From the IMG/VR virus record IMGVR_UViG_3300035661_000054: a stretch of DNA of 64,000 bases; one strand, 5' to 3'. Below are positions 33,515 through 63,672 of this stretch, one piece after another. This stretch comes from a virus. Numbering within the stretch: the first letter of the stretch is position 1; each line of letters opens with the position of its first letter. A program made the position numbers and the translations under genes. The notes under the pieces are model-generated. The model searched no databases. It saw nothing but the letters and a program-made list of their open reading frames with translations, and was not told where the DNA came from.

Positions 33515-34633
33515 ATGAATATCAATGACATGAAGTTAGCTTTAGAGCGTGAAGAAATTCGAGTTCGTAATGAAACTGTGGATGGTGTTAATTTATCTAT
33601 TGTTTCTTATATGGTAGCAACTCCTGATTTATGGGATGTTGAAAATGCATTGGAGGCTCGTGGCATTACTTTTGACGAAAATGGTAATTGTGTTGCTCGT
33701 ACTATGGAAAAATTCTTTAATGTTGGTGAAAATAAATACACTCAACTTTCTGAATCTGATTTTTTAGGTTCTTATGTTTTTGATAAGCTTGATGGTTCTA
33801 TGATTTCCGTTGTTATGATTAATGGAAAATTATTTGCTAAAAGTAAGAAGTCTTTTTATTCCGATGTTGCTTTAATGGCTCAAAAATTTATTGATATTAA
33901 TCAGAATTATCAAGAATTTTGTAGAAGAATTATTGGTTCTGGTTATACTCCTACATTTGAGTTTGAATCTCCTGATGCTCAAATTGTAGTAGAACAAAAA
34001 GAAGAAAAAATGACTTTGCTTTTGGTTAGGGATATTGAAAGTGGAAAATATCTTGAATTTGATTGTTTAGTAAATTTGGCTAAAGAGTACAATATTCCTG
34101 TTGTAAGTGGCATGTGTTTTGATGATTTTTATAATCGTTTTTTGGTTTCTCAAGATGAAAACTTTTTAGATTTTTTACGAAAAAATGTAAAAGATGTTGA
34201 AGGTTGGGTTTTCTTGTTATCAACTGGACAACGTGTTAAATTAAAAACTGATTGGTATTTGTTGCGTCATCGTTTAACTTCTTATCATGAGAGAAATATT
34301 TTTGATTTAATTATTAATGAAGAGATTGATGATATTATGCCTTTGATTGAGAAAAAAGATGGTGCTGTTGATATTGTTAATCAAATTGGTCATCGTATTG
34401 CTCATTTTTATAAAGTTACTATGGATGAAACTATTGGTTTAGTTAATTTATGGAAAGAACAAGGTTTATCTTTATCTGAGATTGGTAAAAATTACTCAAA
34501 TAATATTTATTTTGGTTTAGCGATCAAATTATTCAAAGAACAAGAGCCAGATTATAAAAAATTTATTGTCAATACTTACCGTAAGGATTTCCACACTAAA
34601 TCTGTTTTTTGGGGTTTTGATACTGATTCCTAA
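33515..34633 (+). CDS. rnlA: RNA ligase 1 (T4 RnlA-like)
   Basis: CVARTMEKFFNVGEN vs T4 IASRPMEKFFNLNEN; LDGSMISVV vs EDGSLVSTY; PTFEFESPDAQIVV...KMTLLLVRDIESGKYLEFD vs T4 ANFEFVAPTNRIVL...KIILLNVRENETGEYISYD. Confidence 0.8.
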   Translation: MNINDMKLALEREEIRVRNETVDGVNLSIVSYMVATPDLWDVENALEARGITFDENGNCVARTMEKFFNVGENKYTQLSESDFLGSYVFDKLDGSMISVVMINGKLFAKSKKSFYSDVALMAQKFIDINQNYQEFCRRIIGSGYTPTFEFESPDAQIVVEQKEEKMTLLLVRDIESGKYLEFDCLVNLAKEYNIPVVSGMCFDDFYNRFLVSQDENFLDFLRKNVKDVEGWVFLLSTGQRVKLKTDWYLLRHRLTSYHERNIFDLIINEEIDDIMPLIEKKDGAVDIVNQIGHRIAHFYKVTMDETIGLVNLWKEQGLSLSEIGKNYSNNIYFGLAIKLFKEQEPDYKKFIVNTYRKDFHTKSVFWGFDTDS

Positions 34634-34644
34634 AGTTTTCTGAA

Positions 34645-34672
34645 GAAACCGCTTAAATTGGGTTTCTTTTTT
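34645..34672 (+). terminator. rho-independent terminator
   Basis: gaaaccgcttaaattgggtttctttttt. Confidence 0.7.
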
Positions 34673-34674
34673 GT

Positions 34675-34703
34675 TTGACTTAATTTGTTGTTTTTGATAT
34701 AAT
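34675..34703 (+). promoter_or_regulatory. sigma70-type promoter TTGACT-N17-TGaTATAAT
   Basis: TTGACT 34675-34680, TGATATAAT 34695-34703. Confidence 0.6.
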
Positions 34704-34730
34704 AAGTAAAAGTTAAATAAGGGAATTTTT

Positions 34731-35102
34731 ATGAGATTTTTATTTTTAATGTTTTTCTCAATATCTGCTTTTGCTGATATGGTTGTGCCAGAAAAAGATA
34801 TTGTTATTGAAAATTACGTTCCTCAATATAAAGATTATCCAGAGTTTATTTGTCAAAAAAATCAAGAAGAAATGTTAGGTAAAAATGAATACCTTGTTAG
34901 TTCTAATGGTTATTTTGCTGATGAATCAACGGCAAGAATTTTCACAGAGAAGTCTGTTCTTAATCTTTATCGTTCTAAAAAAGGAGTTTTAAGCACTTCT
35001 GGCGTTTTAGATTTTTTAACCAATAAGCAATGTATGGAGGTTGCTTTAAAAGATGGTAATCCTTATTATAAAGTTTATCATTTTGTCAGTTTTAAAGATT
35101 GA
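34731..35102 (+). CDS. secreted hypothetical protein
   Basis: Signal peptide MRFLFLMFFSISAFA. Confidence 0.4.
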   Translation: MRFLFLMFFSISAFADMVVPEKDIVIENYVPQYKDYPEFICQKNQEEMLGKNEYLVSSNGYFADESTARIFTEKSVLNLYRSKKGVLSTSGVLDFLTNKQCMEVALKDGNPYYKVYHFVSFKD

Positions 35103-35193
35103 TTTTTAAATCAGTTAATATTTTAATGGTTGATTTTTAAAGCAAATCTTGATATAATATAATTTTCCAATCAATAATTAAGAGGTTCTTATT

Positions 35194-36072
35194 ATGCCTA
35201 ATCATGTCGCAAATATTATCAAGTTTAATAACGTTTCTGATGATGTTCCATCTGAAGTGAAAATTTTTGATGAATCAGTTGTTGCTTTTAAGCTATCTTT
35301 GCTTATTTTAAATGAGCCAAATAATTCTGAATATATTGGTTATCTTGATCATTCAATTTCTGATAAAGATATTGTATTAAAAATTATTAATGATTTTGAT
35401 TTAAAAATTTCTGATGAGTTTATGGTGGGTGTTTTAATGAAATACTCTAAAGATTTGCCTGAAGTTTTCCGATTTAGCGATTTTTATGGAAATAATTATT
35501 TTAATGAAGATGGTACAATTAACCTTGAAAAGCTAAAAGAAAAAATAAAGGATTCTTCATGGGATCATTTAAAGTCTGTAGGGTTTTTTTATACTGATGC
35601 TTGGCGTCCTATGAAGTTGCTTTATGCGGTTGCTGGATTTAATAACACTTTTATTAGATCAGGTATTGTGAAAGATTTTAATTTATATGGTTTAAGTTTT
35701 TTAAGTGGTTATGATGCCAGTGTTAATTATTATGGTACTAAGTGGGGTATTTATAATACCAGTTACGAAAATGGTGTTTTATATTATGAAACCGCCTGGA
35801 GTCCTTTGAATGATGAATCTTTAATTGCTCTGGTTAATTATGTTAAAGAAAAAACTGGAATGATTGCTTACGAACATATTTACGCAGAACAAGGTATTGG
35901 TTTTTGTGGTAATAATATTTTCTTAGTAGAGAATGGTTCTCTTGAGTTTAATATTCGTCGAGAGGATGAATTTTCTTTATTTTATAGTGATGGGGATTGT
36001 TATTTCAATATTGAGAATTCGGAAATGCCTGAATATTTGCGTGAAATGGAAAATTATAGTTTTGGTGGTTAA
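35194..36072 (+). CDS. hypothetical protein
   Basis: 292-aa ORF, promoter TTGATT-N17-TGaTATAAT upstream (35131-35160). Confidence 0.45.
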   Translation: MPNHVANIIKFNNVSDDVPSEVKIFDESVVAFKLSLLILNEPNNSEYIGYLDHSISDKDIVLKIINDFDLKISDEFMVGVLMKYSKDLPEVFRFSDFYGNNYFNEDGTINLEKLKEKIKDSSWDHLKSVGFFYTDAWRPMKLLYAVAGFNNTFIRSGIVKDFNLYGLSFLSGYDASVNYYGTKWGIYNTSYENGVLYYETAWSPLNDESLIALVNYVKEKTGMIAYEHIYAEQGIGFCGNNIFLVENGSLEFNIRREDEFSLFYSDGDCYFNIENSEMPEYLREMENYSFGG

Positions 36073-36073
36073 T

Positions 36074-36102
36074 TTGACTTAGTTGTTTATTTTTGATATA
36101 AT
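36074..36102 (+). promoter_or_regulatory. sigma70-type promoter TTGACT-N17-TGaTATAAT
   Basis: TTGACT 36074-36079, TGATATAAT 36094-36102. Confidence 0.6.
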
Positions 36103-36237
36103 AATCAACAAGAAAGAGAAAAATGGTTAAAATTTTGATGCTGATAAACATTTCCACAAAAGCTCTTTAGATATAATTATAACTTTTGTCAAAACCTTCA
36201 GCTTCTCTTATTTTTTTAATTTTTTGGAGTAATAAAC

Positions 36238-36900: not shown

Positions 36901-36920
36901 CTATTTACTAATTTTAAAAG

Positions 36921-36956
36921 GCTTGCTATAATGATATTGTTGTAGCAAGCTTTTTT
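36921..36956 (+). terminator. rho-independent terminator
   Basis: gcttgctataatgatattgttgtagcaagc + tttttt. Confidence 0.65.
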
Positions 36957-37012: not shown

Positions 37013-38707
37013 ATGCAAAAATTAAATTCACAGATTTTAATGTCTGCGGACAGTTACAAATTAACACATGTCGATCAAATTATTGAGGGGACTACTCATA
37101 TTTATGAGACTTTTACTCCTCGAAGTCTAAAACATTTACCAAAAGAAGTTAAAGAACTTACAAATAATAAAATTATTTGGTTTGGTTTTCAGTCAACTAT
37201 CAAAATGATTCATGATAAATTTCAAGAAGAATTTTTTTCTAAAAATTATGATGAAGCTGTGCATTACTTTCTAAGTCAAGTAGGATTTTTTACTGGTGGT
37301 TCTTACGATGATTCTCATATTTATGAATTACACAAGCTTGGGTATTTACCGATTAAAGTAAAATCTCTTGAAGAAGGTAGTTTGGTTAATGTAAAAATCC
37401 CATGTATGACCATTATTAATACTGTTCCAGGCTATGCTTGGTTGGTTGGCTATCTTGAAACTATTTTATCGAATGAAACATGGAAATCTACCACTAATGC
37501 AACCATTGCTTTTGCTTATCGTAAATTGTTTACAAAGGCAGCTATGGAAACAGTTGGTAATGATGAGTTCGTTAAATGGCAAGGTCATGATTTTTCAGCC
37601 CGTGGTATGTCTGGATCGGCTGATGCTTCAAAACAAGGAATGAGCCATTTGACCTCGTTTTTTGGTTCTGACGCTTTTGGAAGTATGTTACCTATTAGTT
37701 ACTATTATAATGAAAGTATTAATAATTTCATTGCTGGTTCTATTAGAGCTTCTGAACACATGACAGAAACATTAGCTATTCAGGTTTTAGCAAAAAAACA
37801 CAATGTTGATTTAGATGAAGCTGAATATATGCAAATGAAGCGATTGATAACTGAGGTTTACCCTACAGGTATTGTTGCTCGTGTTTGTGATTCTTATGAT
37901 TATTGGAATGTTGTAACAAATATTATTCCGAGATTAAAAGAAGATATTATGAATCGTGGACAAGATTCTAAGGGTTTTTCAAAAGTTGTAATTCGACCAG
38001 ATTCAGGTGAACCTGTAGATATTATTTGCGGTACTGCTATTCCTGTTTTTACATTAACAGATGTTGAGCGTTGGTTTAAAGAAAACAAACATAAAGAATC
38101 TCAAATCTTTGTAAAAATTGATGGTAATAATGTGGCTCATTATATGAATTGTGAAGTAACTGAAAATGGTATTGTTACTAATGAAATTCCTTCTAATAAA
38201 GTTACAGCAGAAATGAAAGGTACTGTTTCTTGTTTATGGGAAATTTTTGGTGGTACAATAACTGAAAAAGGTTATAAACTACTTGATAATCATATTGGTA
38301 TGATTTATGGTGATTCAATCACTATTAAAAGAGCTGAAGAGATTGTTTTTCGTTTAAAAATGAAAGGCTTTGCTTCTATTAATACTTTGCTTGGTATCGG
38401 TTCTTATACATACCAAATGGTTAGTAGGGATACGCTTGGTATGGCTTTAAAGGCGACCTTTGCTATTGTTGATGGTCAAGAAATTGATTTAAATAAAAAC
38501 CCAAAAACAGATGATGGAACAAAAAAATCTGCAAAAGGAAGAGTAAGGGTTGAAAAAAATAATTCAGAATATGTTTTATTTGATCAGCAAAGTGAACAAG
38601 AAGAAGCTGGTGGATTATTAAGAATTGTTTATTGTGATGGTAAATTCTTAAATCAACAAACTTTTTCTGATATTAGAACAATTATTGATTCTAATGTTTT
38701 GTTGTAA
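37013..38707 (+). CDS. nadV: nicotinamide phosphoribosyltransferase family protein (NadV/NAMPT-like; alternatively NARP1 Namat-like)
   Basis: NAMPT family hallmark VIRPDSGEPVDII and overall type II phosphoribosyltransferase organisation; 564 aa is longer than canonical NAMPT. Confidence 0.8.
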   Translation: MQKLNSQILMSADSYKLTHVDQIIEGTTHIYETFTPRSLKHLPKEVKELTNNKIIWFGFQSTIKMIHDKFQEEFFSKNYDEAVHYFLSQVGFFTGGSYDDSHIYELHKLGYLPIKVKSLEEGSLVNVKIPCMTIINTVPGYAWLVGYLETILSNETWKSTTNATIAFAYRKLFTKAAMETVGNDEFVKWQGHDFSARGMSGSADASKQGMSHLTSFFGSDAFGSMLPISYYYNESINNFIAGSIRASEHMTETLAIQVLAKKHNVDLDEAEYMQMKRLITEVYPTGIVARVCDSYDYWNVVTNIIPRLKEDIMNRGQDSKGFSKVVIRPDSGEPVDIICGTAIPVFTLTDVERWFKENKHKESQIFVKIDGNNVAHYMNCEVTENGIVTNEIPSNKVTAEMKGTVSCLWEIFGGTITEKGYKLLDNHIGMIYGDSITIKRAEEIVFRLKMKGFASINTLLGIGSYTYQMVSRDTLGMALKATFAIVDGQEIDLNKNPKTDDGTKKSAKGRVRVEKNNSEYVLFDQQSEQEEAGGLLRIVYCDGKFLNQQTFSDIRTIIDSNVLL

Positions 38708-38747: not shown

Positions 38748-39608
38748 GTGTTAAAAATTATTACAGAAAGTGGAAAAGAAATTAACTTCAAAGAAATTAA
38801 TTATCCAAGTGGTGAATTTGATTTTAATATTGTTTTTAATCATGAAATAATGTCTTTAGTTAAACATGAATATGTTGTAATTAAAAATAATTTTTCAAAT
38901 ATTAACAATGTTTTTAAAATTCCTTTCTTAGTTAATGCTCTAATTCAATCAGGTTTTAAGGAAATTAAAATTCAGTTTGATTACTTGCCGTTTAGTAGAC
39001 AGGACAGGTCTTTTATTGCAAACTCTTCTTTTGGCTTAGAATCGTTCATTAAAATTTTATCTGGTTCTGGTGTTAATGAGATTATTGTTGATGATCCGCA
39101 TAATGAAGATGTTTTAAGTTTGCTTTGTAGTAAATACGGATTAAAAATTACTGTTAATACACAAAGCTTTTTAATTAAAAGTAAATTAAATCAACATTTT
39201 TCACTTGATGAAAAAACAGCTTTGGTTTGTCCTGATAAAGGTGCTTTAAAAAAGATTATACCTTTATCTGACGAATTAGGTTTAACGGTTGTTTTGGCTG
39301 AAAAAACTCGTTCCTTAGCTGACGGAAAGATTGTTGACACTAAAATTGTTGGTTATCAACAAAATGGAGAAACAACTTTATTTTTAAATGATGTTGATTT
39401 TTTAAATAATTTTGATAAATTAATTATTGTAGATGATATTTGTGATGGTGGTGCTACTTTTATTGCTTTAGCAAATGTTATTAGAAGTCTTGACTACAAA
39501 GGTGAAATGATTTTGATTGTAACTCATGGGTTTTTCTCAAAAGGACTTGAACCTTTGTTAGCTAAATTTGATTCAGTTTTAAGTATTCATTATTACTCTA
39601 AAATTTGA
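38748..39608 (+). CDS. ribose-phosphate pyrophosphokinase-like protein (Prs homologue; alternatively NARP1 Adps-like)
   Basis: GTG start after RBS aaggaaataaat; PRPP-binding-type motif LIIVDDICDGGATF; immediately downstream of nadV-like gene. Confidence 0.6.
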   Translation: MLKIITESGKEINFKEINYPSGEFDFNIVFNHEIMSLVKHEYVVIKNNFSNINNVFKIPFLVNALIQSGFKEIKIQFDYLPFSRQDRSFIANSSFGLESFIKILSGSGVNEIIVDDPHNEDVLSLLCSKYGLKITVNTQSFLIKSKLNQHFSLDEKTALVCPDKGALKKIIPLSDELGLTVVLAEKTRSLADGKIVDTKIVGYQQNGETTLFLNDVDFLNNFDKLIIVDDICDGGATFIALANVIRSLDYKGEMILIVTHGFFSKGLEPLLAKFDSVLSIHYYSKI

Positions 39609-39690: not shown

Positions 39691-40695
39691 ATGAAGGCAT
39701 ATATCACTATTGGAGTTTCAGCTTCAGGTAAAACAACCTGGACTAATCAATTTTTAAAAAACCATGAAATGCTTTTAAAATCAGGAAAATCTTCTGGTGT
39801 TTATTGTAATATTAATTTTGATGAAATCAGGGCTTTGGTTTTGGTTGAAATGGGTATTATAAAATCTATTGAGGATTTTTCTTGGGATTTATGGAATCTA
39901 AAATACGAAAAAGCCATGTCTAAAAAAGCAAAATATATTTTTGATAATGCTGTCGCACAGGGTTGTTTTATTATTTTGTCTAATACAAACCTAAATAAAG
40001 ATAATCTTATTGCCAAAACAAAAGAGCTTGAATCTTTAGGTTATTCTGTTGAGTGGGTTTATTTTGATATTTCTTATGATGAAGCTTTGAAACGTGATGC
40101 TGGTCGTAAAAATGGTGTTGGTGCTTATGTTATTCGTAAACAATGGAAAAGCTATCTTGAGTTGAAGAGTAAAAGTTTTGTAGTTGAAAATGCTAAATAT
40201 ATATCTTCACTTTGCTCAGTTCAGGCTATTGAACCTTATGTTTTTTCTGATGAAAAAACAGAAGCTTTGATGTTTGACATTGATGGTACTATTGCCAATA
40301 TGGTTGACAGAAGAGCTTATGATTGGGATAAAGTTGGTCAAGATAAGCCAGATTTTGTTATGCAAATTTTAATTGACGGTTGGCTTTCTTTGGGTAAAAA
40401 AATCGTTTTCCTTAGTGGTCGTGATGGTCAATGTTATAAAGAAACTAAAGAATGGATTTTAAAGTATTTTTCAAAAGTTGATTTTGATAAAGAAAAAGGA
40501 AATTCAGTTCTTTTCATGCGTGAACATCAAGATATGAGAAAAGATTATATTGTAAAAAAAGAAATTTTTGATAATAAAGTTAGAAATTCTTATAATATTA
40601 TTGCTGTTTTTGATGATCGTCCTCAAGTGGTTAGGATGTGGCATGATTTAGGTTTAAAAGTTTGGTCTACTGGCGATCAGTTAATTGATTTTTAG
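39691..40695 (+). CDS. pseT: polynucleotide 5'-kinase / 3'-phosphatase (T4 Pnk-like)
   Basis: N-terminal P-loop GVSASGKTTW kinase domain; C-terminal HAD-type phosphatase with FDIDGT (DxDGT) motif. Confidence 0.8.
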   Translation: MKAYITIGVSASGKTTWTNQFLKNHEMLLKSGKSSGVYCNINFDEIRALVLVEMGIIKSIEDFSWDLWNLKYEKAMSKKAKYIFDNAVAQGCFIILSNTNLNKDNLIAKTKELESLGYSVEWVYFDISYDEALKRDAGRKNGVGAYVIRKQWKSYLELKSKSFVVENAKYISSLCSVQAIEPYVFSDEKTEALMFDIDGTIANMVDRRAYDWDKVGQDKPDFVMQILIDGWLSLGKKIVFLSGRDGQCYKETKEWILKYFSKVDFDKEKGNSVLFMREHQDMRKDYIVKKEIFDNKVRNSYNIIAVFDDRPQVVRMWHDLGLKVWSTGDQLIDF

Positions 40696-40765: not shown

Positions 40766-41812
40766 ATGAGTTGGTTTGTTAAAGATTTTAAATGGTCTTT
40801 TTTCTTTACTCTGGTGGCTGTTTTTTTAGCTTATCAATGGGCTGGTTTGATAGGTTCTTTTACAGTTTTAATATTGATTGCTTTAGAAATCAGTATTTCT
40901 TTTGATAATGCTGTTGTTAATGCAAAAATACTAAATGGAATGGATAAAATTTGGCAAGATAGGTTTTTAACCTGGGGTGTATTTATCGCTGTTTTTGGGA
41001 TGCGAGTGATTTTCCCGATTTTAATTGTTGCCTTATCTGCAAGTCTTCCTTTTACTCAAGTTGTTGATATGGCTTTAAATGATCAAAAGCTGTATGAGCA
41101 ACATGTTATGGCTTCCAGTTATGTTATTAGTGCTTTCGGTGGTATTTTCTTATTAATGGTTTTTCTTGAATTTTTATTTGATTATGAGCGTGAATTATTG
41201 TGGATTTCTTTTATTGAAAAACAATTTTCAAAATTGGGTAAAATTGAATCATTAAGTATTGCAATTGGGTTATTTGTTTTAACTTTGGTTACTTATCAAG
41301 TTCCAGAGAAAGAAAAATTAAGTGTAATGATTTCTGGTGTTAGTGCTATGTTTTTATTTATCATTCTTAGTTCTTTATCATCTTATATGAAAAAATTAAA
41401 AGAAGATATTGATTTGGGAAAAACATCTAAAAAAAGTATTGTTTCAGCAGGTTTTATGACTTTCGCGTATTTAGAAGTTTTAGACGCTTCTTTCTCTCTT
41501 GATGGTGTTATTGGTGCTTTTGCAGTTACCAAGGATATTATCGTTATCATGCTTGGTTTAGGTGCTGGTGCTTTATTTGTTCGTTCTATAACTATTTCAT
41601 TAGTTAGACGTGGAGTATTAAATAATTATGTTTATTTAGAGCACAGTGCTCATTATGCTATTGGTGCTTTGGCTATGATTATGTTCTTACACATGTTTAT
41701 GGACATCACAGAGGTTGTTACTGGCGGTATTGGAATTGCTTTCATTTTAGCTGGTATTTATAGTAGTAGTATTCGTCGCAATCAAAAAAAAGAGGTTAAA
41801 AAATGTTGTTAA
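40766..41812 (+). CDS. integral membrane protein, DUF475/TerC-related family (tentative)
   Basis: 8-9 TM helices; paired motifs EISISFDNAV and SFSLDGVIGAF. Confidence 0.45.
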   Translation: MSWFVKDFKWSFFFTLVAVFLAYQWAGLIGSFTVLILIALEISISFDNAVVNAKILNGMDKIWQDRFLTWGVFIAVFGMRVIFPILIVALSASLPFTQVVDMALNDQKLYEQHVMASSYVISAFGGIFLLMVFLEFLFDYERELLWISFIEKQFSKLGKIESLSIAIGLFVLTLVTYQVPEKEKLSVMISGVSAMFLFIILSSLSSYMKKLKEDIDLGKTSKKSIVSAGFMTFAYLEVLDASFSLDGVIGAFAVTKDIIVIMLGLGAGALFVRSITISLVRRGVLNNYVYLEHSAHYAIGALAMIMFLHMFMDITEVVTGGIGIAFILAGIYSSSIRRNQKKEVKKCC

Positions 41813-42252
41813 TTGAAAAATACGAAGAAAGAGTTTTAAGACTTGAGCAAGATTTAGCAGAAGCTTATCAAGTAATTGGTTGTTTTTTACGTTCTGGTAC
41901 ATCTGTTAAGGATTCTGAAATAGAAAAAGCTTTAGATAATATTATAAGTGCTATTGATGATGAGCCAAGAGAGCATGAAGATTTACTTCCTTTTCCTAAA
42001 GAAAGTAAATTAAATATTAAAGAATTATTAAAAGAATTGAGTATAATTTCTAATAATGCTGAAAATGAATCTTTGCCAGATTCTATGAAAAGCTCTCATT
42101 TAAAATATATGATTGATCAAATGAAAGATCCTATGATGGAATGGGATAAATTTAATCGTTGGCTTGGGTGGATTCAAGCTTCTTTGGTTGCTAACGGTGT
42201 TAGTAGCTTAGAAGAACAAAAAGAAATTATTAGAAAAAATCTTTCTAAATAG
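41803..42252 (+). CDS. hypothetical protein
   Basis: 149-aa ORF overlapping upstream stop (operon). Confidence 0.4.
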   Translation: MLLIEKYEERVLRLEQDLAEAYQVIGCFLRSGTSVKDSEIEKALDNIISAIDDEPREHEDLLPFPKESKLNIKELLKELSIISNNAENESLPDSMKSSHLKYMIDQMKDPMMEWDKFNRWLGWIQASLVANGVSSLEEQKEIIRKNLSK

Positions 42253-42290
42253 TTTTTTTGTGTTATAATTGTTTTTTTAATTAATGAGGG

Positions 42291-43118
42291 TTGCTTATTA
42301 TGTTTAAAATGTTATCTGTTGTATTGCTTTCTTTTTTCGTTCTTAGTGGTTGCGTAAAACCTATTACTACTGAACCATCTCATGAAACTGTTTTAGTGGA
42401 TAAACCTTATATTTTTGGTCATGGTGGAGTTCGTAGTGAAACACAAAAACCTGGTTTAGGTTGGTTTTTCTGGTCAACAAGTGGGATTCAAGTTCCAGTT
42501 TACGAATTTAAAATTGATGAGCCTTTTGATGATTTGCCAACTAAAATGCAATCTTTGATTGATTTTCATAGTTATTTAAAATTAGAAATTACTAATCCAG
42601 TTTTACTTGTTGAGAAGTTTAGATATGTAGATGATGGTAAGGATGTTTGGTATAGTTCTGCACTTAAAGAACAATATAGAACTATTGTTAGAAATGTTGC
42701 ACGAAATTATACGATGGAATCTATGTTGACTGATTCAACTACAGTAAATACAATGGAATCTGAAATTAGAGCGGAAATGGATAAATATATTAAATCAATT
42801 GGGATTCCTGTCGTGTTAAAAGATTTAAGTTTGGGTGCTATTAGACCTAATCAGGCTGTAATGGCAGAAATTGATAATACAGCTTCACAACAACAAAGAA
42901 TCAAAACTGAGATTGCAAGAAATGAAGCAGAAATGTCTCGTAAAGACGCTGAAAAATCAAGAGCTACTGCTGATAAAGCATATCAAGAAGAGCTTGGTTT
43001 AAGTTCTAATGAAATTGTTTCTTTGCAGATTGCTAAGGTTTACGCTGACGCATGTGCTAAATCTGCAACTTGTGTTATTAACAATTCTCCTACAGGTGTA
43101 GCAGTTTCTGTTAAATAA
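42291..43118 (+). CDS. lipoprotein, possibly SPFH/band-7-like
   Basis: Lipobox LSGC; C-terminal Ala/Glu-rich region reminiscent of SPFH tails; weak. Confidence 0.35.
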   Translation: MLIMFKMLSVVLLSFFVLSGCVKPITTEPSHETVLVDKPYIFGHGGVRSETQKPGLGWFFWSTSGIQVPVYEFKIDEPFDDLPTKMQSLIDFHSYLKLEITNPVLLVEKFRYVDDGKDVWYSSALKEQYRTIVRNVARNYTMESMLTDSTTVNTMESEIRAEMDKYIKSIGIPVVLKDLSLGAIRPNQAVMAEIDNTASQQQRIKTEIARNEAEMSRKDAEKSRATADKAYQEELGLSSNEIVSLQIAKVYADACAKSATCVINNSPTGVAVSVK

Positions 43119-46162: not shown

Positions 46163-46888
46163 TTGAAAACAATTATTTTTGCTGATGGTGATAATTTTTC
46201 ATATAAAAGATTGGGCGATGTTATTCAATGTATTGGTAAAACAACAAAATTGAGTATTAAGTTATTTGCCAATCATATAGGTTTGATTGATTGCTGGAAA
46301 AAAGAAATTATTAAATATGGTTTTGAATCTGTTAATATCTTTCAAAGTAAATTTGGTAAAAAGAATTCGAGTGACATTGTTTTAAGTGTTGAGGCATTAA
46401 AGTCTCTTTACGAAGAAGATTGGGATAGATTTGTTTTTATTAGTGGTGATGGTGATTTTGCTTATTTATTTAAAACAATTAAAAACAATAAAAAAATTGT
46501 AAGTATTTTTAGTGGTGAACATTCTTCTTGTGCGTCAAGATTAGAATGTACTGATTATCATATTTTATATGAAAAATCAATGGTTAATGTTGAGAGAAAT
46601 GACACTGGTTATTCTTTTTATACTAAATATTTTAATAAAAGCATTGCGCATAAAAAGTTAATGGTTGTAAAAAGAATTAATGATTTGATAAATTTAGCTG
46701 GAAATGATGGTTGTGTTGAAATTCCTGGTTCTCTGTTAAGAGAGATGTCTGCGAAAGAAGGTATTATAGTAAGTAAAAGAAATACTAAAAAACACATAGA
46801 ACATCTTGGTTTTTCTCTTGTTGCTAAAGACAAAAGGGTTTATGTTTGCAAAGGCGAACATACAGATTATTTACTAAGTTTGATTTAA
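46163..46888 (+). CDS. NYN/LabA-like domain protein (putative RNase)
   Basis: TTG start after RBS aaaggtgatg; IIFADGDNF ... FISGDGDF match NYN core. Confidence 0.55.
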   Translation: MKTIIFADGDNFSYKRLGDVIQCIGKTTKLSIKLFANHIGLIDCWKKEIIKYGFESVNIFQSKFGKKNSSDIVLSVEALKSLYEEDWDRFVFISGDGDFAYLFKTIKNNKKIVSIFSGEHSSCASRLECTDYHILYEKSMVNVERNDTGYSFYTKYFNKSIAHKKLMVVKRINDLINLAGNDGCVEIPGSLLREMSAKEGIIVSKRNTKKHIEHLGFSLVAKDKRVYVCKGEHTDYLLSLI

Positions 46889-49905: not shown

Positions 49906-50562
49906 TTAAAGCATTTTATCCATTTCTGCCATGATTCTCATAGCTGGAGTTGATTTAATCATTTCTTCAAAATATTGACGACAAATACTGTGAGTTTTAT
50001 CATCCATTTTAAAGCCTTTTGAAATTGAAAAACGATACGCTCTCATAATTCTGAGTTTGTCTTCATTTATTCTGTCTTTAGCTTTTCCTACAAATCTGAG
50101 CTTTTTAGATTTAATATCTTCCAAACCCAAACCAGTAGGATCAATTATTTTATCATTTACTATATCGTAATACAAAGCATTAACTGTAAAGTCTCTGCGA
50201 TTAGCATCATCAAATATAGTGCCTATTGAAGTTGAATCAGGTCTCCTACCATCGGTATAAGTACCATCTTTTCGATATAAAGCAATTTCAAACTGTTGTT
50301 CGTTCTTACTTACAATCATAACAAGAAAGTTTTTTCCTGCTTCATTTACTTGCCAGTTGTTTGAGGCGAAAGCCTCTTTAATATCATCAAGATTTCCATT
50401 GCAAACAATGTCAAAATCTTTAATTTTATGACTTTCTTTATGATAAAGATTGGTTAAATAATCTCTAACACAACCACCAACCAACATAACCTCTGATGAA
50501 CAACTTTTTAAAATTAAAAAAAGTTGTAAAAGAGTGTTATTTTTTTCGATTGTTTCTATCAT
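49906..50562 (-). CDS. cca: tRNA nucleotidyltransferase (CCA-adding enzyme) head domain protein
   Basis: GGCVRD, DFDIV (DxD), RRDFTVNALYYD signatures of class II Pol-beta CCA-adding/poly(A) polymerase head; only 218 aa. Confidence 0.75.
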   Translation of the reverse strand: MIETIEKNNTLLQLFLILKSCSSEVMLVGGCVRDYLTNLYHKESHKIKDFDIVCNGNLDDIKEAFASNNWQVNEAGKNFLVMIVSKNEQQFEIALYRKDGTYTDGRRPDSTSIGTIFDDANRRDFTVNALYYDIVNDKIIDPTGLGLEDIKSKKLRFVGKAKDRINEDKLRIMRAYRFSISKGFKMDDKTHSICRQYFEEMIKSTPAMRIMAEMDKML

Positions 50563-51421: not shown

Positions 51422-51691
51422 ATGTTGTTTTTTAATTGGGTATTGTTTGGGGTTTCAATACTTATTGCTCTTTCTGTTTTTGTTTCTGGTTCTTATTACG
51501 TAGTAACTCATAATGGAGTTTTACTTTTTGCTTTCATGGTTCCAATATTTTTACTTATTTCTTTTATTACTTTTATCTCAATGGTGCTTTTTAGTAACGC
51601 AGTTTTTTCTATTTTCTCTAAAAGAAAATTAAATCCTAATCTAATGTTGTATTGTTTAGATAGAACAATTTCTGTTATTCGTTCAAAATAA
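51422..51691 (+). CDS. small membrane protein (3 TM)
   Basis: 89-aa hydrophobic ORF behind strong promoter; RBS aaggaggtttttttaATG. Confidence 0.4.
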   Translation: MLFFNWVLFGVSILIALSVFVSGSYYVVTHNGVLLFAFMVPIFLLISFITFISMVLFSNAVFSIFSKRKLNPNLMLYCLDRTISVIRSK

Positions 51692-51744
51692 CTATTGACA
51701 AACATTATTTGGTTTGTTATACTTATATCAAATGGTTGTGGTCT

Positions 51745-52037
51745 TAAGACATAGTTAAATATTTTTAAGCATCTGGAAGGCGGTTCGATTCCGCCCATCT
51801 CCACCAAAAAATATATTGTTTAGTATGTTTTTTAATGGGGATGACCAGGTTTCGACAGGTGTGTTAAGGGTATTGATGACAACTTCGCAAGGTGGAAGCG
51901 ATCTCTCTATGAGAAAAGAAACAAAAAAATAAATGCAAACGACGAAAACTTTGCTATTGCAGCTTGATACTGCTTGGGTTTGAGATACCTCTAAACAGAA
52001 CATCTCAATCGAACCTTACCTAACGGTAAGGTTTTTT
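51745..52037 (+). ncRNA. ssrA: tmRNA (ssrA), apparently circularly permuted two-piece form
   Basis: Acceptor piece ends 51806 with T arm ggcgg-ttcgatt-ccgcc, 3' acceptor catctcc, A, CCA. Coding piece starts 51837 with ggggatgaccaggtttcgacagg (GGGGnUGA..GGnUUCGACGGG tmRNA 5' consensus), pairs with G3-U70. Tag ORF 51935-51967 is gcaaacgacgaaaactttgctattgcagcttga (ANDENFAIAA-stop). Terminator 52011-52037. 5' boundary of acceptor piece uncertain. Confidence 0.6.
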
Positions 52038-52042: not shown

Positions 52043-52119
52043 GCACAGGTGTCAGAGTGGTCTATTGAGGTGGATTGCAAATCCATTGTTCAGCGGTTCG
52101 AATCCGCTCTTGTGCTCCA
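52043..52119 (+). tRNA. tRNA-Cys (anticodon GCA)
   Basis: Acceptor gcacagg/cttgtgc, anticodon arm gtgga-ttgcaaa-tccat, T arm agcgg-ttcgaat-ccgct, 3' tcca. Confidence 0.75.
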
Positions 52120-52193: not shown

Positions 52194-53228
52194 GTGTCTA
52201 ATGTTTTTATGATGATTTCTGGTGGAATTGATTCTATGGTTTTAGCTCAATATTATGTTAATAATGGTATTGAATTTAAAGCTATTTTTATTGATGATTC
52301 AGAATATTCTAAAGGTGTTTGTTCTAAAAATGTTGTGGAATTATTTTGTCAAAAAAACAATATTAAATTGTATCAAAAAAAATATGTTAAAAATAAAAAC
52401 GGAAACAATAACCTTGAAGCGAATATGAGAGATTTTAGATATAATTTTGCTTTTGAAGTTATGGCTGGTTTTGAAAATCCTATCTTAATTACAGCTCATC
52501 ATTTAAATGATCGTGTTGAAACAATGCTAATGAATTTTGTTAGAGGTTCTGGTGTTTTAGGATTGAGTAATATGAATGAAATTGAATCTAAAAACAAAGG
52601 TTTTAATTATCAGCATCATCGTCCTTTTATTAATAAATCAAAAAATGAAATTAAATTAATGGCTAATGAATACGGATTTATTGAAAATATTCATTATGTT
52701 GAGGATTTAACTAATAATGATACTGATATTACAAGAAACTGGTTTCGTCATAATGTTGTTAATAAAATTATGAGTGAATTTTCTCATAAAGGTATTTCTC
52801 GTAGCTTTGAGCTTCTTTCTCAAGAAAGTGTTGATTTAAATAATTTAAAAATTAACTTAGAAGATGGTTATATTTGTAGTGATTTTATTGATATGAATTG
52901 CATTAATAAAAGTCAGGTTTATTATTTGGCTAAAAAGTTTTTTGAAAAATCTGGTATTGCTTTTACAAAAAAAGGTGCGGAGTTGTTTGCATGGCTCATT
53001 TTTAACGGAAAGGAATTTTCTTTAAGAAGTAAAAATGGTGACATTCAATTTGGTTTTACTATTATTTCTAATGAAGAATCAAATGATGATTTTGAATCAA
53101 ATAAGTTTATTAAAGTTTTTGCAATTAATAAAAATGAAAAACAAGAGTGTAAGCAAAAATTTGATCAACATACAAAATATCTGTATGTTTCACCAAAATT
53201 AAGATTTTACAATATTAATATCTATTAA
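52194..53228 (+). CDS. tilS: tRNA(Ile)-lysidine synthetase TilS-like PP-loop ATPase
   Basis: N-terminal PP-loop ISGGIDS (SGGxDS), HHLNDRVETMLMN downstream as in TilS/MesJ N-domain; 344 aa. Confidence 0.65.
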   Translation: MSNVFMMISGGIDSMVLAQYYVNNGIEFKAIFIDDSEYSKGVCSKNVVELFCQKNNIKLYQKKYVKNKNGNNNLEANMRDFRYNFAFEVMAGFENPILITAHHLNDRVETMLMNFVRGSGVLGLSNMNEIESKNKGFNYQHHRPFINKSKNEIKLMANEYGFIENIHYVEDLTNNDTDITRNWFRHNVVNKIMSEFSHKGISRSFELLSQESVDLNNLKINLEDGYICSDFIDMNCINKSQVYYLAKKFFEKSGIAFTKKGAELFAWLIFNGKEFSLRSKNGDIQFGFTIISNEESNDDFESNKFIKVFAINKNEKQECKQKFDQHTKYLYVSPKLRFYNINIY

Positions 53229-53239: not shown

Positions 53240-53848
53240 GTGGTTTTTTCATATTTAGAATTTTTAGGAATGACTTTAGGGGTTATTGGCTCAATCTTAA
53301 TGGCAGCTTCAAGTAAAGAAGAAACCAAGCCTTTGCTTTATGCTTATTATGCTTATGGTTTATCTAATTATGTTCTGCTTTTTGTTGTAGCGAATGCTGG
53401 ACTTGTTTTTGTTTATTCTCAAATGATTATTTTTGGTCTTTTGGGTTTAAGAGGTATTTATACTTTCGGAAATAAAAATACAGTATTTTATTTTGCTTCA
53501 ATTTTATTTTTATCTATTATAAGTTCGTCTTTCTTTTTTAATAAAAATGTATTTGTTTTGGATTTTAAAGAACTTATATTGACAGTCTTTGCGATTGTTG
53601 GAACGGTTTTTTTAGCAAATAAAAACCATATTATTAGGGAATATGCTTTTATCTTATTTATATTGTCTGATATTGGTTTTGTTTACTTGTTTTTTAGTAA
53701 TAATTTAATCTTTATGACAATGCAATATGCTTTTTATTTAATTACTTCAGGTGTTGCATTATATAGAAACGAAGGTTACTTATATAACTTGATGCGTAAT
53801 TCTTTCCGTTCTTATGCTCGTGCTGTTTTGGATTGTTATGTGCATTAA
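53240..53848 (+). CDS. PnuC-like nicotinamide riboside transporter (tentative)
   Basis: 7 predicted TM; N-terminal YLEFLGMTLGVIGSILMA resembles PnuC WIEAVGTIAGLLCIGLAS. Confidence 0.4.
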   Translation: MVFSYLEFLGMTLGVIGSILMAASSKEETKPLLYAYYAYGLSNYVLLFVVANAGLVFVYSQMIIFGLLGLRGIYTFGNKNTVFYFASILFLSIISSSFFFNKNVFVLDFKELILTVFAIVGTVFLANKNHIIREYAFILFILSDIGFVYLFFSNNLIFMTMQYAFYLITSGVALYRNEGYLYNLMRNSFRSYARAVLDCYVH

Positions 53849-58247: not shown

Positions 58248-58261
58248 AAAAGGATTTAGTT

Positions 58262-60953: not shown

Positions 60954-61003
60954 TTGTTTGTTTTTGATATAATTAACTTAATTAATTATGGGGGGTTGAT
61001 TTT

Positions 61004-61453
61004 ATGCTTTATGATTACTGTTTTTATTCTAATATTACAAAATCTTTGGAAAACTTTCCTAAAGCTCCTTCACGATTAAGGATTGATGATTCACTTCTTT
61101 TTGATAACTTTAAAATTAGAAAACAAGATTTACATTTCTTGAAAAGTATTGGTGCTGTTCCTGACTTTGATTCTCCTTCTGGTTGGTGTAAACTTTCACA
61201 AGATGTTGATGAACATAAAGACGGTTTTGGTAAGACGCTTCTTTACTGTGATTCAGGTGCTTCTACTTTTAATTATTATAATGGTGTTGATTTTTTTTAT
61301 ATTGCTTTAACCAGAGGTTCTTATTTGGTTTTTAATGACTATAATGAGCATAGTTTAACTATTCATACAAGAACGACTAATCTTATGGTTTGTGGTGTTA
61401 AAGATTTTCTAAAAAAACAGGATAATTGTTTTTTTAAGGGTAATTTTAAATAA
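61004..61453 (+). CDS. hypothetical protein
   Basis: 149-aa ORF behind TGaTATAAT promoter. Confidence 0.4.
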   Translation: MLYDYCFYSNITKSLENFPKAPSRLRIDDSLLFDNFKIRKQDLHFLKSIGAVPDFDSPSGWCKLSQDVDEHKDGFGKTLLYCDSGASTFNYYNGVDFFYIALTRGSYLVFNDYNEHSLTIHTRTTNLMVCGVKDFLKKQDNCFFKGNFK

Positions 61454-61465
61454 AGGGGTTGAAAA

Positions 61466-61933
61466 ATGTTTTTAAATAAAGAAGTTGAAACTGATACGCA
61501 TATTCACGGTTTTTTTGGTAAATATCGTTTTTTAAGTAATTTTCATTTGTGTCCTGTTTTTGTATGGAATGATGGTTTAACTTATCCATCTTCTGAAAAT
61601 GCTTATATGGCTCAAAAAACAAGCTCTAAGCTTGTTAAAGAAATTTTTGCTATGAATTGTGTAACACCAAAACATGCCAGAAATCTTGGTCAACAAATCA
61701 TTGTCGAAGATGATTGGGATGTTTTGAGAGTTGGTATTATGTACTTTTGTGTTAAATTAAAATTTCTTCAGAATCCAGATATTTCTGAACTTTTATTGGC
61801 AACTGGTGATAAAATATTGGAAGAAACTAATGGTTGGAATGATACCTTTTGGGGTGTCTGCAATGGTGTTGGTGAAAATAATCTTGGTAAGATTTTGATG
61901 AGTGTTAGGGAAGAAATTATTAAAGGAATTTAG
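61466..61933 (+). CDS. NADAR (YbiA-like, DUF1768) domain protein
   Basis: GFFGKYRFLSNFH...P...ENAYMAQK and later W..D conserved stretch typical of NADAR family. Confidence 0.6.
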   Translation: MFLNKEVETDTHIHGFFGKYRFLSNFHLCPVFVWNDGLTYPSSENAYMAQKTSSKLVKEIFAMNCVTPKHARNLGQQIIVEDDWDVLRVGIMYFCVKLKFLQNPDISELLLATGDKILEETNGWNDTFWGVCNGVGENNLGKILMSVREEIIKGI

Positions 61934-62091
61934 TATATGTTTATGTTTTTAATTGAAAAGCTAATTCAGTAATTGTAGATAGATGTTTTAATTAATAACG
62001 GTAAATATTGATTAATTTTTAGTTTTAATGTAGTTTCAAGGGGATTTTTATGAAAAAAGTTTTTAAATTTGTTAAATAAGGAGATGCAGTA

Positions 62092-62367
62092 ATGGTAGAA
62101 GTTCCTCTTTTGCTTGTTATTTTTTCAATCGGAATGGTTATTGCATTAGTTCTATATTTGATTGAATATCTTCTTGAAGAATACCAGCATAAAAAGAAAG
62201 ATAAACCGTTAGAACAGATTAAGGAATCTCAAATTGACATTAATGAACTAACTCCAGACGAAATCGAGTTAATTAGGTGCAAACGCACTGCTGAATCAAT
62301 AAATTGCCAAAAAGATGACAAGGAAAAGACAACTAAGAAAATAGTGGTTTTTCTGATTTCGATATAG
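62092..62367 (+). CDS. small membrane-anchored protein
   Basis: N-terminal TM LLLVIFSIGMVIALVLYLIEYLL; 91 aa. Confidence 0.3.
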   Translation: MVEVPLLLVIFSIGMVIALVLYLIEYLLEEYQHKKKDKPLEQIKESQIDINELTPDEIELIRCKRTAESINCQKDDKEKTTKKIVVFLISI

Positions 62368-62598
62368 GTATTAGAATTGTTGATGATATATCTTTAATAT
62401 CTAAAAGAAATATTCTGCCTTTTTAATTTACTTTTATTAAATTAAAGCAAAAAATGCAGGTAGATATTTTAGTTAATGGTATTAAACTTGATTAATTTTT
62501 GGTTTTGATGTATAATTACTATTATGCTAAATAGAAAGGGTTTTACTTTTTTGATTGTTGTAGTATTTTTTGTTTAATGTTGTTTCAAAGGGGTTTTT

Positions 62599-63672
62599 AT
62601 GAAAAAAGTTTTTAAATTTCCATCAATCGAAAGTTTTAGTTCTATTGTTAAAAATGTTCGTGAAAAAGCTAAATTTGTTGGTTTAGATGATGAAGGTAAA
62701 GCAATTTTTGATGAAACCTTACGTGCGCCTGTTTACGAATTTCATGGTACTGTAAAGATTCATGGTACAAATTCTTCTATTTGTTACAATGAAAAGCATG
62801 GTTTATGGGTTCAGTCTCGCACAAACATTATTACGCCTTTAAGTGATAATGCTGGTTTTGCTGGTTACGTAGAGGCTAATAAAGAAGCTTTTATGGAATT
62901 GATTAAAGACTATGTTTCTAAAAATAATCTTGATGTTTCTGAAAATACCATTTGCATTTATGGGGAGTGGTGTGGTGGTTCTATTCAAAAAGGTGTTGCA
63001 GTAAACAAATTAAGTAAAATGTTTGTTATTTTTGGTATTAAATTAATGCAAGAAACGGATGAGATTGATCCAGAAACTGGTGAAGTTTTATTAAAGGGTT
63101 CTTGGTTGAATCATGTTGGTGTTAAGAATGAATCTATTCGATGCTATAATATCGAAGATTTTCCAACATTTAAGGTTGTTGTTGATTTTGAAAACCCTAA
63201 GCTTTCTAAAAATGAAATTGTTGATTTAACGATTCAAGTTGAGGAAAAATGTCCTGTTGGTCTTAAATTTGGTGTTGAAGGTATCGGAGAGGGTATTGTT
63301 TTCTCTTGTACTCTTGATGATGGAAGTGTAATTCGTTTTAAATCAAAAGGTGAAAAACACTCCAAAACTAAAGTAAAAGTATTAAAAGAAGTTGATAATG
63401 AACTTGAGGCTTTAAAACAAGGTTTGGCTTTAGAATTAACTCCAGATTGGCGTGTTGATCAAGCTATTCAAGAAGTATTTAATACTTTAAATAATGGTGT
63501 TGTTGACGTGAAAGGTTTGGGTGATGTTATTAAGTGGGTATTGGCTGATATTGTTAAAGAAGAAATTCATAAATTAGCGGAAGCTAAAATTGAATTAAAG
63601 CAATTATCTTCTTATATTTCTGCTAATGTTAAAAAACGATTCTTTGTTGTTTTGAAAGAAAATTTAGTTTAA
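62599..63672 (+). CDS. rnlB: RNA ligase 2 (T4 Rnl2-like)
   Basis: FKFPSIESF...KIHGTNSSI (motif I KxHGTN) parallels T4 Rnl2 KYSSLENHY...KIHGTNFSL; EWCGGSIQKGV vs EFAGPGIQKNV. Confidence 0.7.
   Translation: MKKVFKFPSIESFSSIVKNVREKAKFVGLDDEGKAIFDETLRAPVYEFHGTVKIHGTNSSICYNEKHGLWVQSRTNIITPLSDNAGFAGYVEANKEAFMELIKDYVSKNNLDVSENTICIYGEWCGGSIQKGVAVNKLSKMFVIFGIKLMQETDEIDPETGEVLLKGSWLNHVGVKNESIRCYNIEDFPTFKVVVDFENPKLSKNEIVDLTIQVEEKCPVGLKFGVEGIGEGIVFSCTLDDGSVIRFKSKGEKHSKTKVKVLKEVDNELEALKQGLALELTPDWRVDQAIQEVFNTLNNGVVDVKGLGDVIKWVLADIVKEEIHKLAEAKIELKQLSSYISANVKKRFFVVLKENLV

Follow-up and report, generated by a model that had tools for sequence, protein, structure and literature searches.

A 64-kb stretch of the virus record IMGVR_UViG_3300035661_000054 (hereafter the window; whatever is reported absent from it is absent from these 64 kb) encodes two RNA ligases, a polynucleotide kinase-phosphatase (Pnkp), a minimal CCA-type nucleotidyltransferase, a TilS-like lysidine synthetase, 24 tRNAs and a tmRNA. 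We consider it probable, at roughly 65%, that these genes form a combined system of RNA repair and tRNA supply, with the repair part modeled on the T4 pathway against PrrC. The evidence consists of gene presence, protein families, catalytic motifs, encoded CCA ends, the Ile2 identity of two tRNAs and the linkage of the genes in relatives; what we infer, from the T4 PrrC paradigm and from published comparative genomics, are the substrates, the reaction order and the purpose, be it counter-defense or compensation for a lost tRNA pool. An earlier reading of the same DNA (the original prediction) had described a distributed tRNA repair and maintenance toolkit. Every gene and RNA that it listed was recovered at the same coordinates and on the same strand, and the protein-family matches exceed chance by a wide margin. 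The repair core, the linkage and the case for CCA repair bore out this reading, whereas the inclusion of TilS among the repair enzymes did not hold and the anticodon check that it proposed was uninformative.

RNA ligases, kinase-phosphatase and CCA-type enzyme

The predicted repair part comprises four proteins:
33515..34633, + strand: RNA ligase 1 (Rnl1) of the T4 gp63/RnlA family, 372 aa (PF09511, phrog_562, 2C5U alignment)
39691..40695, + strand: bifunctional polynucleotide 5'-kinase/3'-phosphatase (Pnkp) of the T4 PseT family, 334 aa (AAA_33 and HAD_PNKP, phrog_505, 1LTQ)
62599..63672, + strand: distant Rnl2-family RNA ligase, 357 aa, with nucleotidyltransferase and helical C-terminal domains (PF09414, phrog_548, profile and fold search)
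49906..50562, - strand: minimal class II CCA-type tRNA nucleotidyltransferase, 218 aa, with head and neck (PolyA_pol, phrog_24229, 6IBP/7OTR)

Homology searches placed the first protein in the Rnl1 family, as the original prediction had proposed. It matched PF09511 (1.7e-24) and phrog_562 (4e-67) and aligned with the T4 Rnl1 structure 2C5U (E 7e-29), and ligase motifs I, III, IV and V (K91-LDG, FEFES148, EGWV229 and K242-L-K244-TDWY) were found in register with those of T4 Rnl1. Its score against TIGR02308 was 143.6 bits, under the equivalog cut-off of 242. In T4, tRNA specificity is provided by the Rnl1-specific C-terminal domain; for the C-terminal part of the window protein, the phrog_562 match spans residues 9-360 and the PDB alignment stops at residue 277. 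Pnkp carried both the kinase and the HAD-phosphatase domain claimed for it, with matches to AAA_33 (8.5e-10), PF25109 HAD_PNKP (1.8e-41) and phrog_505 (3.5e-71), no matching model in NCBIfam, and an end-to-end alignment with T4 Pnkp 1LTQ (E 1e-24). In the kinase domain, the P-loop GVSASGKTT (residues 8-16), D44/R47 (NFDEIR) and KRDAGR134 line up with K15/S16, D35/R38 and R122/R126 of the T4 enzyme, and the phosphatase motifs DIDGT196, LSGR241 and FDDR307 line up with T4 DVDGT, VSGR and IDDR. Judged by these residues, the healing-and-sealing core of Pnkp and Rnl1 is intact.

The Rnl2-like ligase matched PF09414 (8e-13) and phrog_548 (4e-45); a plain phmmer search against the PDB found nothing, and NCBIfam had no model for it. 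Its family comprised 2,820 homologues, many of them on contigs of 260-385 kb. With a 32-sequence profile, the best PDB sequence was T4 Rnl2 (2HVQ, E 5.4e-6), aligned over residues 53-342 of 357 and thus including the C-terminal domain. The AlphaFold2 (AF2) model had a mean predicted local distance difference test (pLDDT) score of 88.8 and four helices at 267-356. Foldseek ranked T4 Rnl2 (2HVR/2HVQ, E 1.7e-12) at the top, above trypanosome REL1, Naegleria NgrRnl, fungal Trl1, T4 Rnl1 and archaeal Rnl3; template modeling (TM) scores against full-length T4 Rnl2 reached only 0.43-0.47, perhaps owing to a different domain orientation. Motif I (K53-IHGTN) is identical to that of T4 Rnl2 at all six positions; together with motifs III, IV and V (YGEW121, EGIVF231 and FK248-S-K250), it was invariant in the 32-sequence alignment. 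Both hallmarks of the Rnl2 family, the nucleotidyltransferase motifs and the all-helical C-terminal domain for nick sealing, were therefore present, and by profile and modeled fold the protein is a distant but genuine two-domain member. The claim of an RNA ligase 2 accordingly stands for the family, on profile, fold and motifs, but not for closeness, as the similarity to Rnl2 is only distant and escaped phmmer.

The CCA-type enzyme matched the PolyA_pol head (1e-29) and phrog_24229 (4.8e-49), and aligned to residues 42-241 of 420-aa class II enzymes (6IBP/7OTR, E 3e-24; 1MIV, 2.8e-21). Motif A (GGCVRD29, DFD49-51), the flexible loop (DGRRPDS104), motif B (RRDFTVNA122) and motif D in the neck, the nucleotide template (EDKLR167), align to 6IBP/7OTR, revealing the head and neck typical of class II. 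The description of this gene as encoding a "head domain" was correct for the head but incomplete, since the neck is also present and motifs A to D are all there. What the protein lacks, compared with the characterized enzymes (~390-420 aa), is the body and tail, which anchor the acceptor/T-arm of the tRNA: the protein ends at residue 218, where the body would begin, and the 63-aa open reading frame (ORF) downstream has no family and does not supply them. The full-length equivalog models of NCBIfam left it under all cut-offs (e.g., 139 versus 290). This short form is not a truncation artifact, because its length is conserved in dozens of homologue clusters (45-97% identity, 207-230 aa), in the orthologue of the Acinetobacter jumbo phage ME3 (gp258, 220 aa, 50.5% identical, annotated as tRNA nucleotidyltransferase) and in PHROG 24229, a family of 245 positions. 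CCA-type nucleotidyltransferases occurred in 483 of 50,697 phage records, and our literature search returned no biochemical study of the short form. The match to the PcnB model TIGR01942 was also below its cut-off (120.8 bits), and the 218-aa enzyme may add CCA, CC, A only or poly(A).

The strongest new argument for a functional module of these four proteins comes from the gene order in relatives. In four distant relatives, a small sample, the genes were linked in four out of four. The 82-kb contig L003 has Rnl2, Rnl1, Pnkp and the CCA enzyme in one co-oriented 5.3-kb cluster, in the order Rnl2-like ligase, a 121-aa ORF, Rnl1, three small ORFs, Pnkp and a 218-aa CCA enzyme. The four enzymes are 60.5%, 45.5%, 44.7% and 69% identical, in that order, to their counterparts in the window, and an Rv2179c-like exoribonuclease gene comes next. 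The order is kinase, Rnl1, Rnl2 in L010 (320 kb), where the Rnl1 stop overlaps the Rnl2 start; kinase, Rnl1, DNA ligase, Rnl2 in L011 (384 kb); and Rnl1, DNA ligase, Rnl2 in L012 (142 kb). The distance between Rnl1 and Rnl2 is at most 5 kb in the latter three. Because of this linkage, Rnl2, Rnl1, Pnkp and the CCA enzyme probably belong together functionally; coming from independent contigs, it is evidence that the four act together.

tRNA genes, lysidine synthetase and tmRNA

The predicted supply part comprises the following features:
12634..17040, + strand: array of 23 tRNA genes, all with encoded 3'-CCA (ARAGORN and Rfam agree)
16023..16099, + strand: tRNA-Ile2(CAU), predicted lysidine substrate of the phage TilS (E. 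coli tRNA match)
16343..16419, + strand: second tRNA-Ile2-like CAU gene, a weakened copy (E. coli tRNA match)
51709..52036, + strand: two-piece (circularly permuted) tmRNA, tag ANDENFAIAA* (ARAGORN permuted flag, Rfam)
52043..52119, + strand: tRNA-Cys(GCA), 6 nt past the tmRNA and 74 nt ahead of TilS (ARAGORN and Rfam, 57.8 bits)
52194..53228, + strand: TilS-like tRNA(Ile)-lysidine synthetase, 344 aa, catalytic N-domain plus orphan C-terminal region (TIGR02432, PDB)

An array of about 25 tRNA genes had been predicted; the array is present, with a count of 23, or 24 tRNAs with tRNA-Cys. The array covers 17 amino acids and includes Lys-UUU, Tyr, Asn, Asp, two Glu, Gln, one Met-like CAU and two Ile2-like CAU species. 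A relaxed Rfam scan added one sub-threshold pseudo-tRNA (13504-13561). The phage tRNAs decode 67% of the 16,131 codons of the window under strict wobble rules, and 89% if U34 reads whole four-codon boxes; the array comes close to a complete set for decoding, far more than a few supplements for rare codons. Codon use favors A/U-ending codons (TTA, 54% of Leu; AAA, 85% of Lys; AGA, 48% of Arg). The proposed check for commonly cleaved tRNAs found Lys-UUU, Tyr, Asn, Asp, Glu and Gln, and all such species except Arg and His are in the array, but since the array is nearly complete, their presence does not discriminate between hypotheses. The 3'-CCA is encoded in 24 of the 24 tRNA genes and in the acceptor piece of the tmRNA. 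As all tRNA genes encode CCA, the CCA enzyme is not needed for their maturation, which favors a role in repair.

The TilS-like protein scored 135.2 bits against TIGR02432 (lysidine_TilS_N; cut-off 93.6) and matched the PP-loop family ATP_bind_3 (1.2e-36), and its sole PDB matches were TilS enzymes (1NI5, 1WY5 and 3A2K). Residues S9, G10, G11, D13, S14, R82, H102, D106, E109, T110, D171, N174, R181 and R185 are invariant with bacterial TilS, including those in the motifs SGGIDS9-14 (PP-loop SGGxDS), HHLND102 and ET109. The assignment is limited to the N-terminal 190-210 residues, and homologues align over ~54% of the query. Past residue 187, there was no Pfam match such as PF11734 or PF28558, the C-terminal domains of bacterial TilS. 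An exhaustive HMMER search with the last 145 aa against 1.84 billion representatives found no credible homologue; its only three matches, in multiple stretches of 1,235-2,163-aa proteins, were judged spurious. In the AF2 model, the N-domain alone was confident, with pLDDT below 50 over 221-232, 273-319 and most of 328-344. The full 344-aa length is kept in relatives. The claim of a TilS-like synthetase therefore holds for the N-domain, which scores above the TIGR02432 cut-off, and the C-terminal 145 residues are an orphan. TilS homologues were rare, in 31 of 50,697 GenBank phage records, many being unannotated, bacterial-looking fragments; the clear phage cases are those of the PA5oct/MIJ3 group.

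For the CAU tRNAs at 16023-16099 and 16343-16419, the best E. coli match was an annotated tRNA-Ile with the anticodon CAT, and the third CAU tRNA (15222-15297) matched tRNA-Met. In the second Ile2 copy, G1 and A72 are mismatched and the D stem is weakened (Rfam 51.8 versus 70.8 bits). ATA makes up 17% of the Ile codons in the window. The phage thus appears to encode a TilS-like enzyme together with its natural predicted substrate, tRNA-Ile2. TilS had been counted among the repair enzymes; its role would instead be decoding and tRNA maturation, most simply in a pair with the two phage tRNA-Ile2(CAU) genes.

The tmRNA was present as predicted and could be further specified as the permuted, two-piece type. 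It matched RF01850 beta_tmRNA with 131.3 bits (gathering threshold 84) and RF04321 tmRNA_permuted with 112 bits (gathering threshold 47). The acceptor piece lies upstream and ends in ...UCUCCACCA (CCA), and the coding piece holds the tag frame with its hydrophobic A-A end, the two features expected of a two-piece molecule. In the close relatives L004-L006, the order of tmRNA, tRNA-Cys and TilS is kept, and the tag, ANDKNFAIAA, has one residue changed with the frame and C-terminus preserved. The 89-aa ORF directly upstream of the tmRNA (51422-51691), a 90-aa gene in the same relatives, has no Pfam family and is not SmpB. No glutamine riboswitch was found in the window at the Rfam gathering thresholds.

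The array itself has several further peculiarities. A non-tRNA repeat of ~75-80 nt occurs in seven copies in its spacers (13395-13474, 14110-14189, 14561-14640, 15615-15694, 16096-16175, 16416-16495 and 16808-16887), mostly directly behind the 3' end of a tRNA; the rest of the window has no copy, and chance would give 0 matches. The repeat folds as two hairpins, with compensatory changes at three base pairs. It could serve as a signal for processing or form a small stable RNA, comparable to RNAs C and D of the T4 tRNA cluster. A tandem block duplication at 15620-16495 gave Ala-[Ile-Pro]-Glu(CTC)-Ile2(CAU) and Ala-Glu(TTC)-Ile2(CAU), 93-94% identical, in which the Glu copies differ in their anticodon. 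In addition, a degenerate tRNA-Lys paralogue (~13504-13575) scored 25.9 bits, below gathering, and a 399-nt gap contains a sub-threshold Trp_leader match (15554-15619, 34.6 bits versus gathering 41), which is probably a hairpin followed by a U-run, ending where a copy of the spacer repeat starts.

Repair plus supply weighed against other explanations

The system we propose would have two layers. In the first, the repair of RNA breaks, Pnkp would strip the 2',3'-cyclic or 3'-phosphate and phosphorylate the 5'-OH, the ends left by metal-independent anticodon nucleases, after which Rnl1 would close the broken anticodon loop. The Rnl2-type ligase would seal nicks in duplex RNA, and the minimal CCA-type nucleotidyltransferase would restore damaged 3'-CCA ends of tRNA or tmRNA. 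In the second layer, the 24 tRNAs, as a near-complete decoding set, would replace or supplement the host pool, TilS would turn C34 of both phage tRNA-Ile(CAU) species into lysidine so that AUA is read, and the two-piece tmRNA, with host SmpB, would free ribosomes stalled on broken tRNA or mRNA. The catalytic motifs of Rnl1, Pnkp, the Rnl2-like ligase, the CCA enzyme and TilS appear intact, which argues for this system. The reversal of PrrC cleavage by T4 Pnkp and Rnl1 is established (cited in PMC10264068). By analogy with it, PrrC, RloC, PARIS or retrons would be the opponents that the phage expects, as the original prediction had suggested.

Several points weigh against a combined repair and supply system. 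Neither an anticodon nuclease trigger nor an inhibitor such as Stp was identified. The repair genes in the window are dispersed over 30 kb on both strands and do not form an operon. The window has no tRNA for Arg, His or Phe, even at E<=1 in an Rfam search of the array. A search for SmpB in all ORFs of the window, among them the 89-aa ORF ahead of the tmRNA, gave no match, so the SmpB used would be that of the host. The CCA enzyme lacks the body and tail that bind tRNA in characterized class II enzymes, its activity and substrate being sequence-based predictions, and in the phage TilS the tRNA-recognizing C-terminal domain of bacterial TilS is unrecognizable. T4 Rnl1 also has a non-enzymatic role in tail-fiber attachment, so the presence of such a gene does not by itself imply repair, and we know of no established biological role for Rnl2, even in T4.

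The most probable alternative is translational autonomy without defense, which we regard as possible but clearly less probable than repair plus supply. In this case, an AT-rich phage that degrades or outruns the host tRNA pool would use its tRNAs, TilS, CCA enzyme and tmRNA to keep its own A/U-rich codons translated, Rnl1 would be a tail-fiber attachment chaperone, and Pnkp and Rnl2 would process nucleic-acid ends in general. The strongly A/U-ending codons (TTA, AAA, AGA and ATA) and a tRNA set covering 67-89% of codons, not a few targeted species, are what autonomy would lead one to expect, and the PHROG label of Rnl1 is 'RNA ligase and tail fiber protein attachment catalyst'. TilS is also found in the AT-rich phages PA5oct/MIJ3, whose GC content is far from that of the host (PMC6892783). 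Codon compensation is an established hypothesis, as is the idea that phage tRNAs replace a degraded host pool (reviewed in PMC10264068). However, the recurrent tight linkage of Pnk, Rnl1 and Rnl2, joined by the CCA enzyme in L003, is hard to explain if Rnl1 is purely morphogenetic, and the catalytic residues of the ligases and of the kinase/phosphatase are all kept. For the layer of tRNAs, TilS and tmRNA, autonomy and repair are not mutually exclusive.

A second alternative, which we rate as improbable, is that the ligases and Pnkp heal the ends of phage RNA and DNA in general, such as mRNA processing products, 3'-phosphate DNA nicks and intron or splicing by-products, with no specificity for tRNA. 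T4 Pnkp acts on both DNA and RNA ends. An ATP-dependent DNA ligase gene lies between Rnl1 and Rnl2 in L011 and L012, and the window encodes nucleases of its own (NYN, PhoH2 with a PIN domain, and endonuclease NS). Nevertheless, no DNA ligase stands beside these genes in the window, the Rnl1 family is characterized as a sealer of the tRNA anticodon loop, and the CCA enzyme adjoining Pnkp in L003 points to tRNA. Finally, a mere list of unrelated accessory genes co-occurring in a large genome, some of them decaying, might be suspected from their scatter over 30 kb among genes of NAD salvage, membrane stress and DNA metabolism, from the CCA enzyme of half the usual length and from the unrecognizable C-terminus of TilS, but it is largely refuted by conservation and linkage and hardly credible: the short CCA form is conserved (207-230 aa in dozens of clusters and in the cultured phage ME3), TilS keeps its invariant catalytic residues and its 344-aa length in relatives, and the four repair genes are clustered there.

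Within the repair-plus-supply reading, a bolder proposal, which we put forward only tentatively and consider unlikely as it stands, is that the 218-aa nucleotidyltransferase is no degenerate housekeeping CCA enzyme but a dedicated repair enzyme, the fourth member of an Rnl2-Rnl1-Pnkp-nucleotidyltransferase module such as the contiguous one in L003, and that TilS and tRNA-Ile2 are a phage-private pair. The 218-aa enzyme may reach its substrate without body and tail, either via a partner protein or by recognizing damaged acceptor ends, and a private TilS/tRNA-Ile2 pair would make AUA decoding independent of the host. If this were true, each of the two would add a biochemical variant to the known forms of a textbook tRNA enzyme.

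Precedents, phage lineage and neighboring genes

Among the closest known systems is the tRNA restoration pathway of T4 against PrrC, with PseT, RnlA (gp63) and RnlB (gp24.1). The window shares with it the three enzyme families, their catalytic motifs and domain architectures, the dispersal of the repair genes in the genome and the presence of phage-encoded tRNAs. Sequence identities are low, and the Rnl2-like ligase is linked to T4 Rnl2 by profile or fold search only. T4 has 8 tRNAs, compared with 24 here, and is not known to encode a CCA enzyme, TilS or tmRNA. A survey of jumbo phages (Iyer et al. 2021, PMC7824862) described as counter-defense the provision of tRNAs along with Rnl1, Rnl2 or RtcB, PNK-HAD, CCA-adding enzymes, NAD+ salvage and NADAR, and the same combination has been described in huge phages (Al-Shayeb et al. 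2020, PMC7162821). With these systems the window has in common many tRNAs, Rnl1, Rnl2, PNK-HAD, a CCA enzyme, a tmRNA, NAMPT and NADAR in one genome, and the best GenBank relatives of these proteins are the jumbo phages RsoM2USA, ME3, X1 and BcepSaruman; in contrast to them, the window has no RtcB, RlaP (PF10127), 2H phosphoesterase, Pth2, KptA or Thg1. The gene set itself is real; its kind, however, is already published for jumbo and huge phages in these two surveys. The finding fits the current picture of phage counter-defense and leaves it unchanged; it adds an uncultured, very AT-rich lineage to the large phages with a full tRNA repair and supply system.

Less ordinary are the conserved minimal CCA-type enzyme adjoining Pnkp in L003, the rare TilS with an orphan C-terminus alongside two Ile2-type tRNAs, and the CCA in every tRNA gene. 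TilS has 0 occurrences in the survey of Iyer et al. (PMC7824862), and that of PA5oct/MIJ3 was reported as previously unseen in phages (PMC6892783). Like these Pseudomonas jumbo phages, our phage is a large AT-rich one that combines a PP-loop TilS with several 'tRNA-Met' (CAU) genes; unlike theirs, its TilS, which is ~31% identical in the N-domain only, has an orphan C-terminal region of 145 aa and lies directly after the tmRNA and tRNA-Cys, and here the link from TilS to its Ile2 substrates was drawn from the tRNA sequences. One point of practical interest is this TilS, rare among phages, whose C-terminal domain is new and whose predicted substrates are encoded nearby. Another is the CCA-type enzyme, which resembles the class II CCA-adding enzymes of Geobacillus (1MIV) and Planococcus (6IBP) in head, neck, motifs A to D and flexible loop but lacks ~180-200 residues of body and tail; this 218-aa class II nucleotidyltransferase could define the smallest functional CCA-adding core. 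As for the tmRNA, phage tmRNAs are already documented (PMC9004378, PMC7162821): they occur in 2.3% of phage genomes, with 53 unique two-piece forms, mostly from aquatic phages (PMC9004378). The OM43 phage Melnitz, also T4-like, likewise has a circularly permuted ssrA, which is of the alphaproteobacterial type, in contrast to the window tmRNA, which fits the betaproteobacterial type RF01850.

The window has a GC content of 24-36% (~28% overall), with most genes on the + strand. A megablast search with two of its sub-regions against 50,697 GenBank phage records gave no match and thus no annotated close relative, a related-locus search in IMG/VR with Rnl1 as the query gave no confirmed relative, and an exact 44-mer scan of genome contigs gave no match and therefore no clue to a host or prophage. 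The best GenBank phage matches of Rnl1 and Rnl2, at up to ~38% identity, came from the Ralstonia jumbo phage RsoM2USA, the Stenotrophomonas YB07 group, the Xanthomonas phages X1 and BUDD, and BcepSaruman. Fragments identical or 94-97% identical to the window were present in several metagenomes, namely JGI 3300036715, SRR11723145, SRR27869036, ERR5100012 and SRR22746124. The more distant relative L003 has the T4 hallmarks RegA, DsbA, NrdAB and Td. Since its protein relatives are jumbo phages and L003 carries these hallmarks, we treat the window as part of the genome of a putative uncultured, AT-rich phage of T4-like or jumbo type. In L003 (12426-16161), two ORFs encode the large subunit of ribonucleotide reductase, which is interrupted by an HNH-like ORF; the second reductase ORF has a weak match to an intein-splicing domain, which suggests an insertion by an intein or homing endonuclease.

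Genes related to nicotinamide adenine dinucleotide (NAD+) lie among the RNA-repair genes. Directly upstream of Pnkp are the genes of NAMPT (NF006629, 466 bits) and of a protein resembling ribose-phosphate diphosphokinase (37013-38707 and 38748-39608), with a weak PnuC-like transporter of nicotinamide mononucleotide (NMN) right after TilS (53240-53848), and a NADAR domain protein upstream of Rnl2 (61466-61933); an NMN adenylyltransferase was not found in the window. These genes are consistent with the published phage NAD+ reconstitution as counter-defense. The ORF at 21951-22973 (340 aa) contains 'GDLDVLL', a motif of the Pol-beta type, and is matched by phrog_24943 ('DNA polymerase', 7.7e-33); its homologues in 28 GenBank phage records are largely from the phages that gave the best Rnl1 matches (YB07 group, X1, BUDD and ME3). 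RlaP is the RNA-ligase-associated Pol-beta nucleotidyltransferase of PF10127 (PMC12776372); we rejected this identity for the 340-aa protein, which lacks PF10127, with no Pfam family at E<=0.001, and has no PDB match. By its motif, it may be another RNA-end nucleotidyltransferase.

Two further proteins are candidate RNA-processing enzymes: a NYN-domain nuclease (46163-46888; PF01936, 5e-19), which is beside a RecD2-like helicase in relatives too, and a PhoH2-type protein with PIN and PhoH RNA helicase/RNase domains (30277-31689, - strand; NF053827, 2e-61). Precursors of tRNA or tmRNA, or host RNA, are conceivable substrates of either. NCBIfam had no model matching NYN or PnuC. A cyclic di-GMP set consists of a metallophosphatase-PilZ fusion, an HDOD protein and a GGDEF diguanylate cyclase (2679-3425, 4551-5483 and 5499-6341, - strand), the last with a match of 6e-35 and an intact GGEEF motif, and is adjoined by an HtpX-type M48 protease (6505-7377, - strand). 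Finally, the regions 24158-26196 and 40766-43118 encode a glutathionylspermidine synthase homologue (1e-102), PspA/IM30, a DUF475/TerC membrane protein and an SPFH/Band 7 protein; these host-physiology genes point to an influence of the phage on envelope or redox stress.

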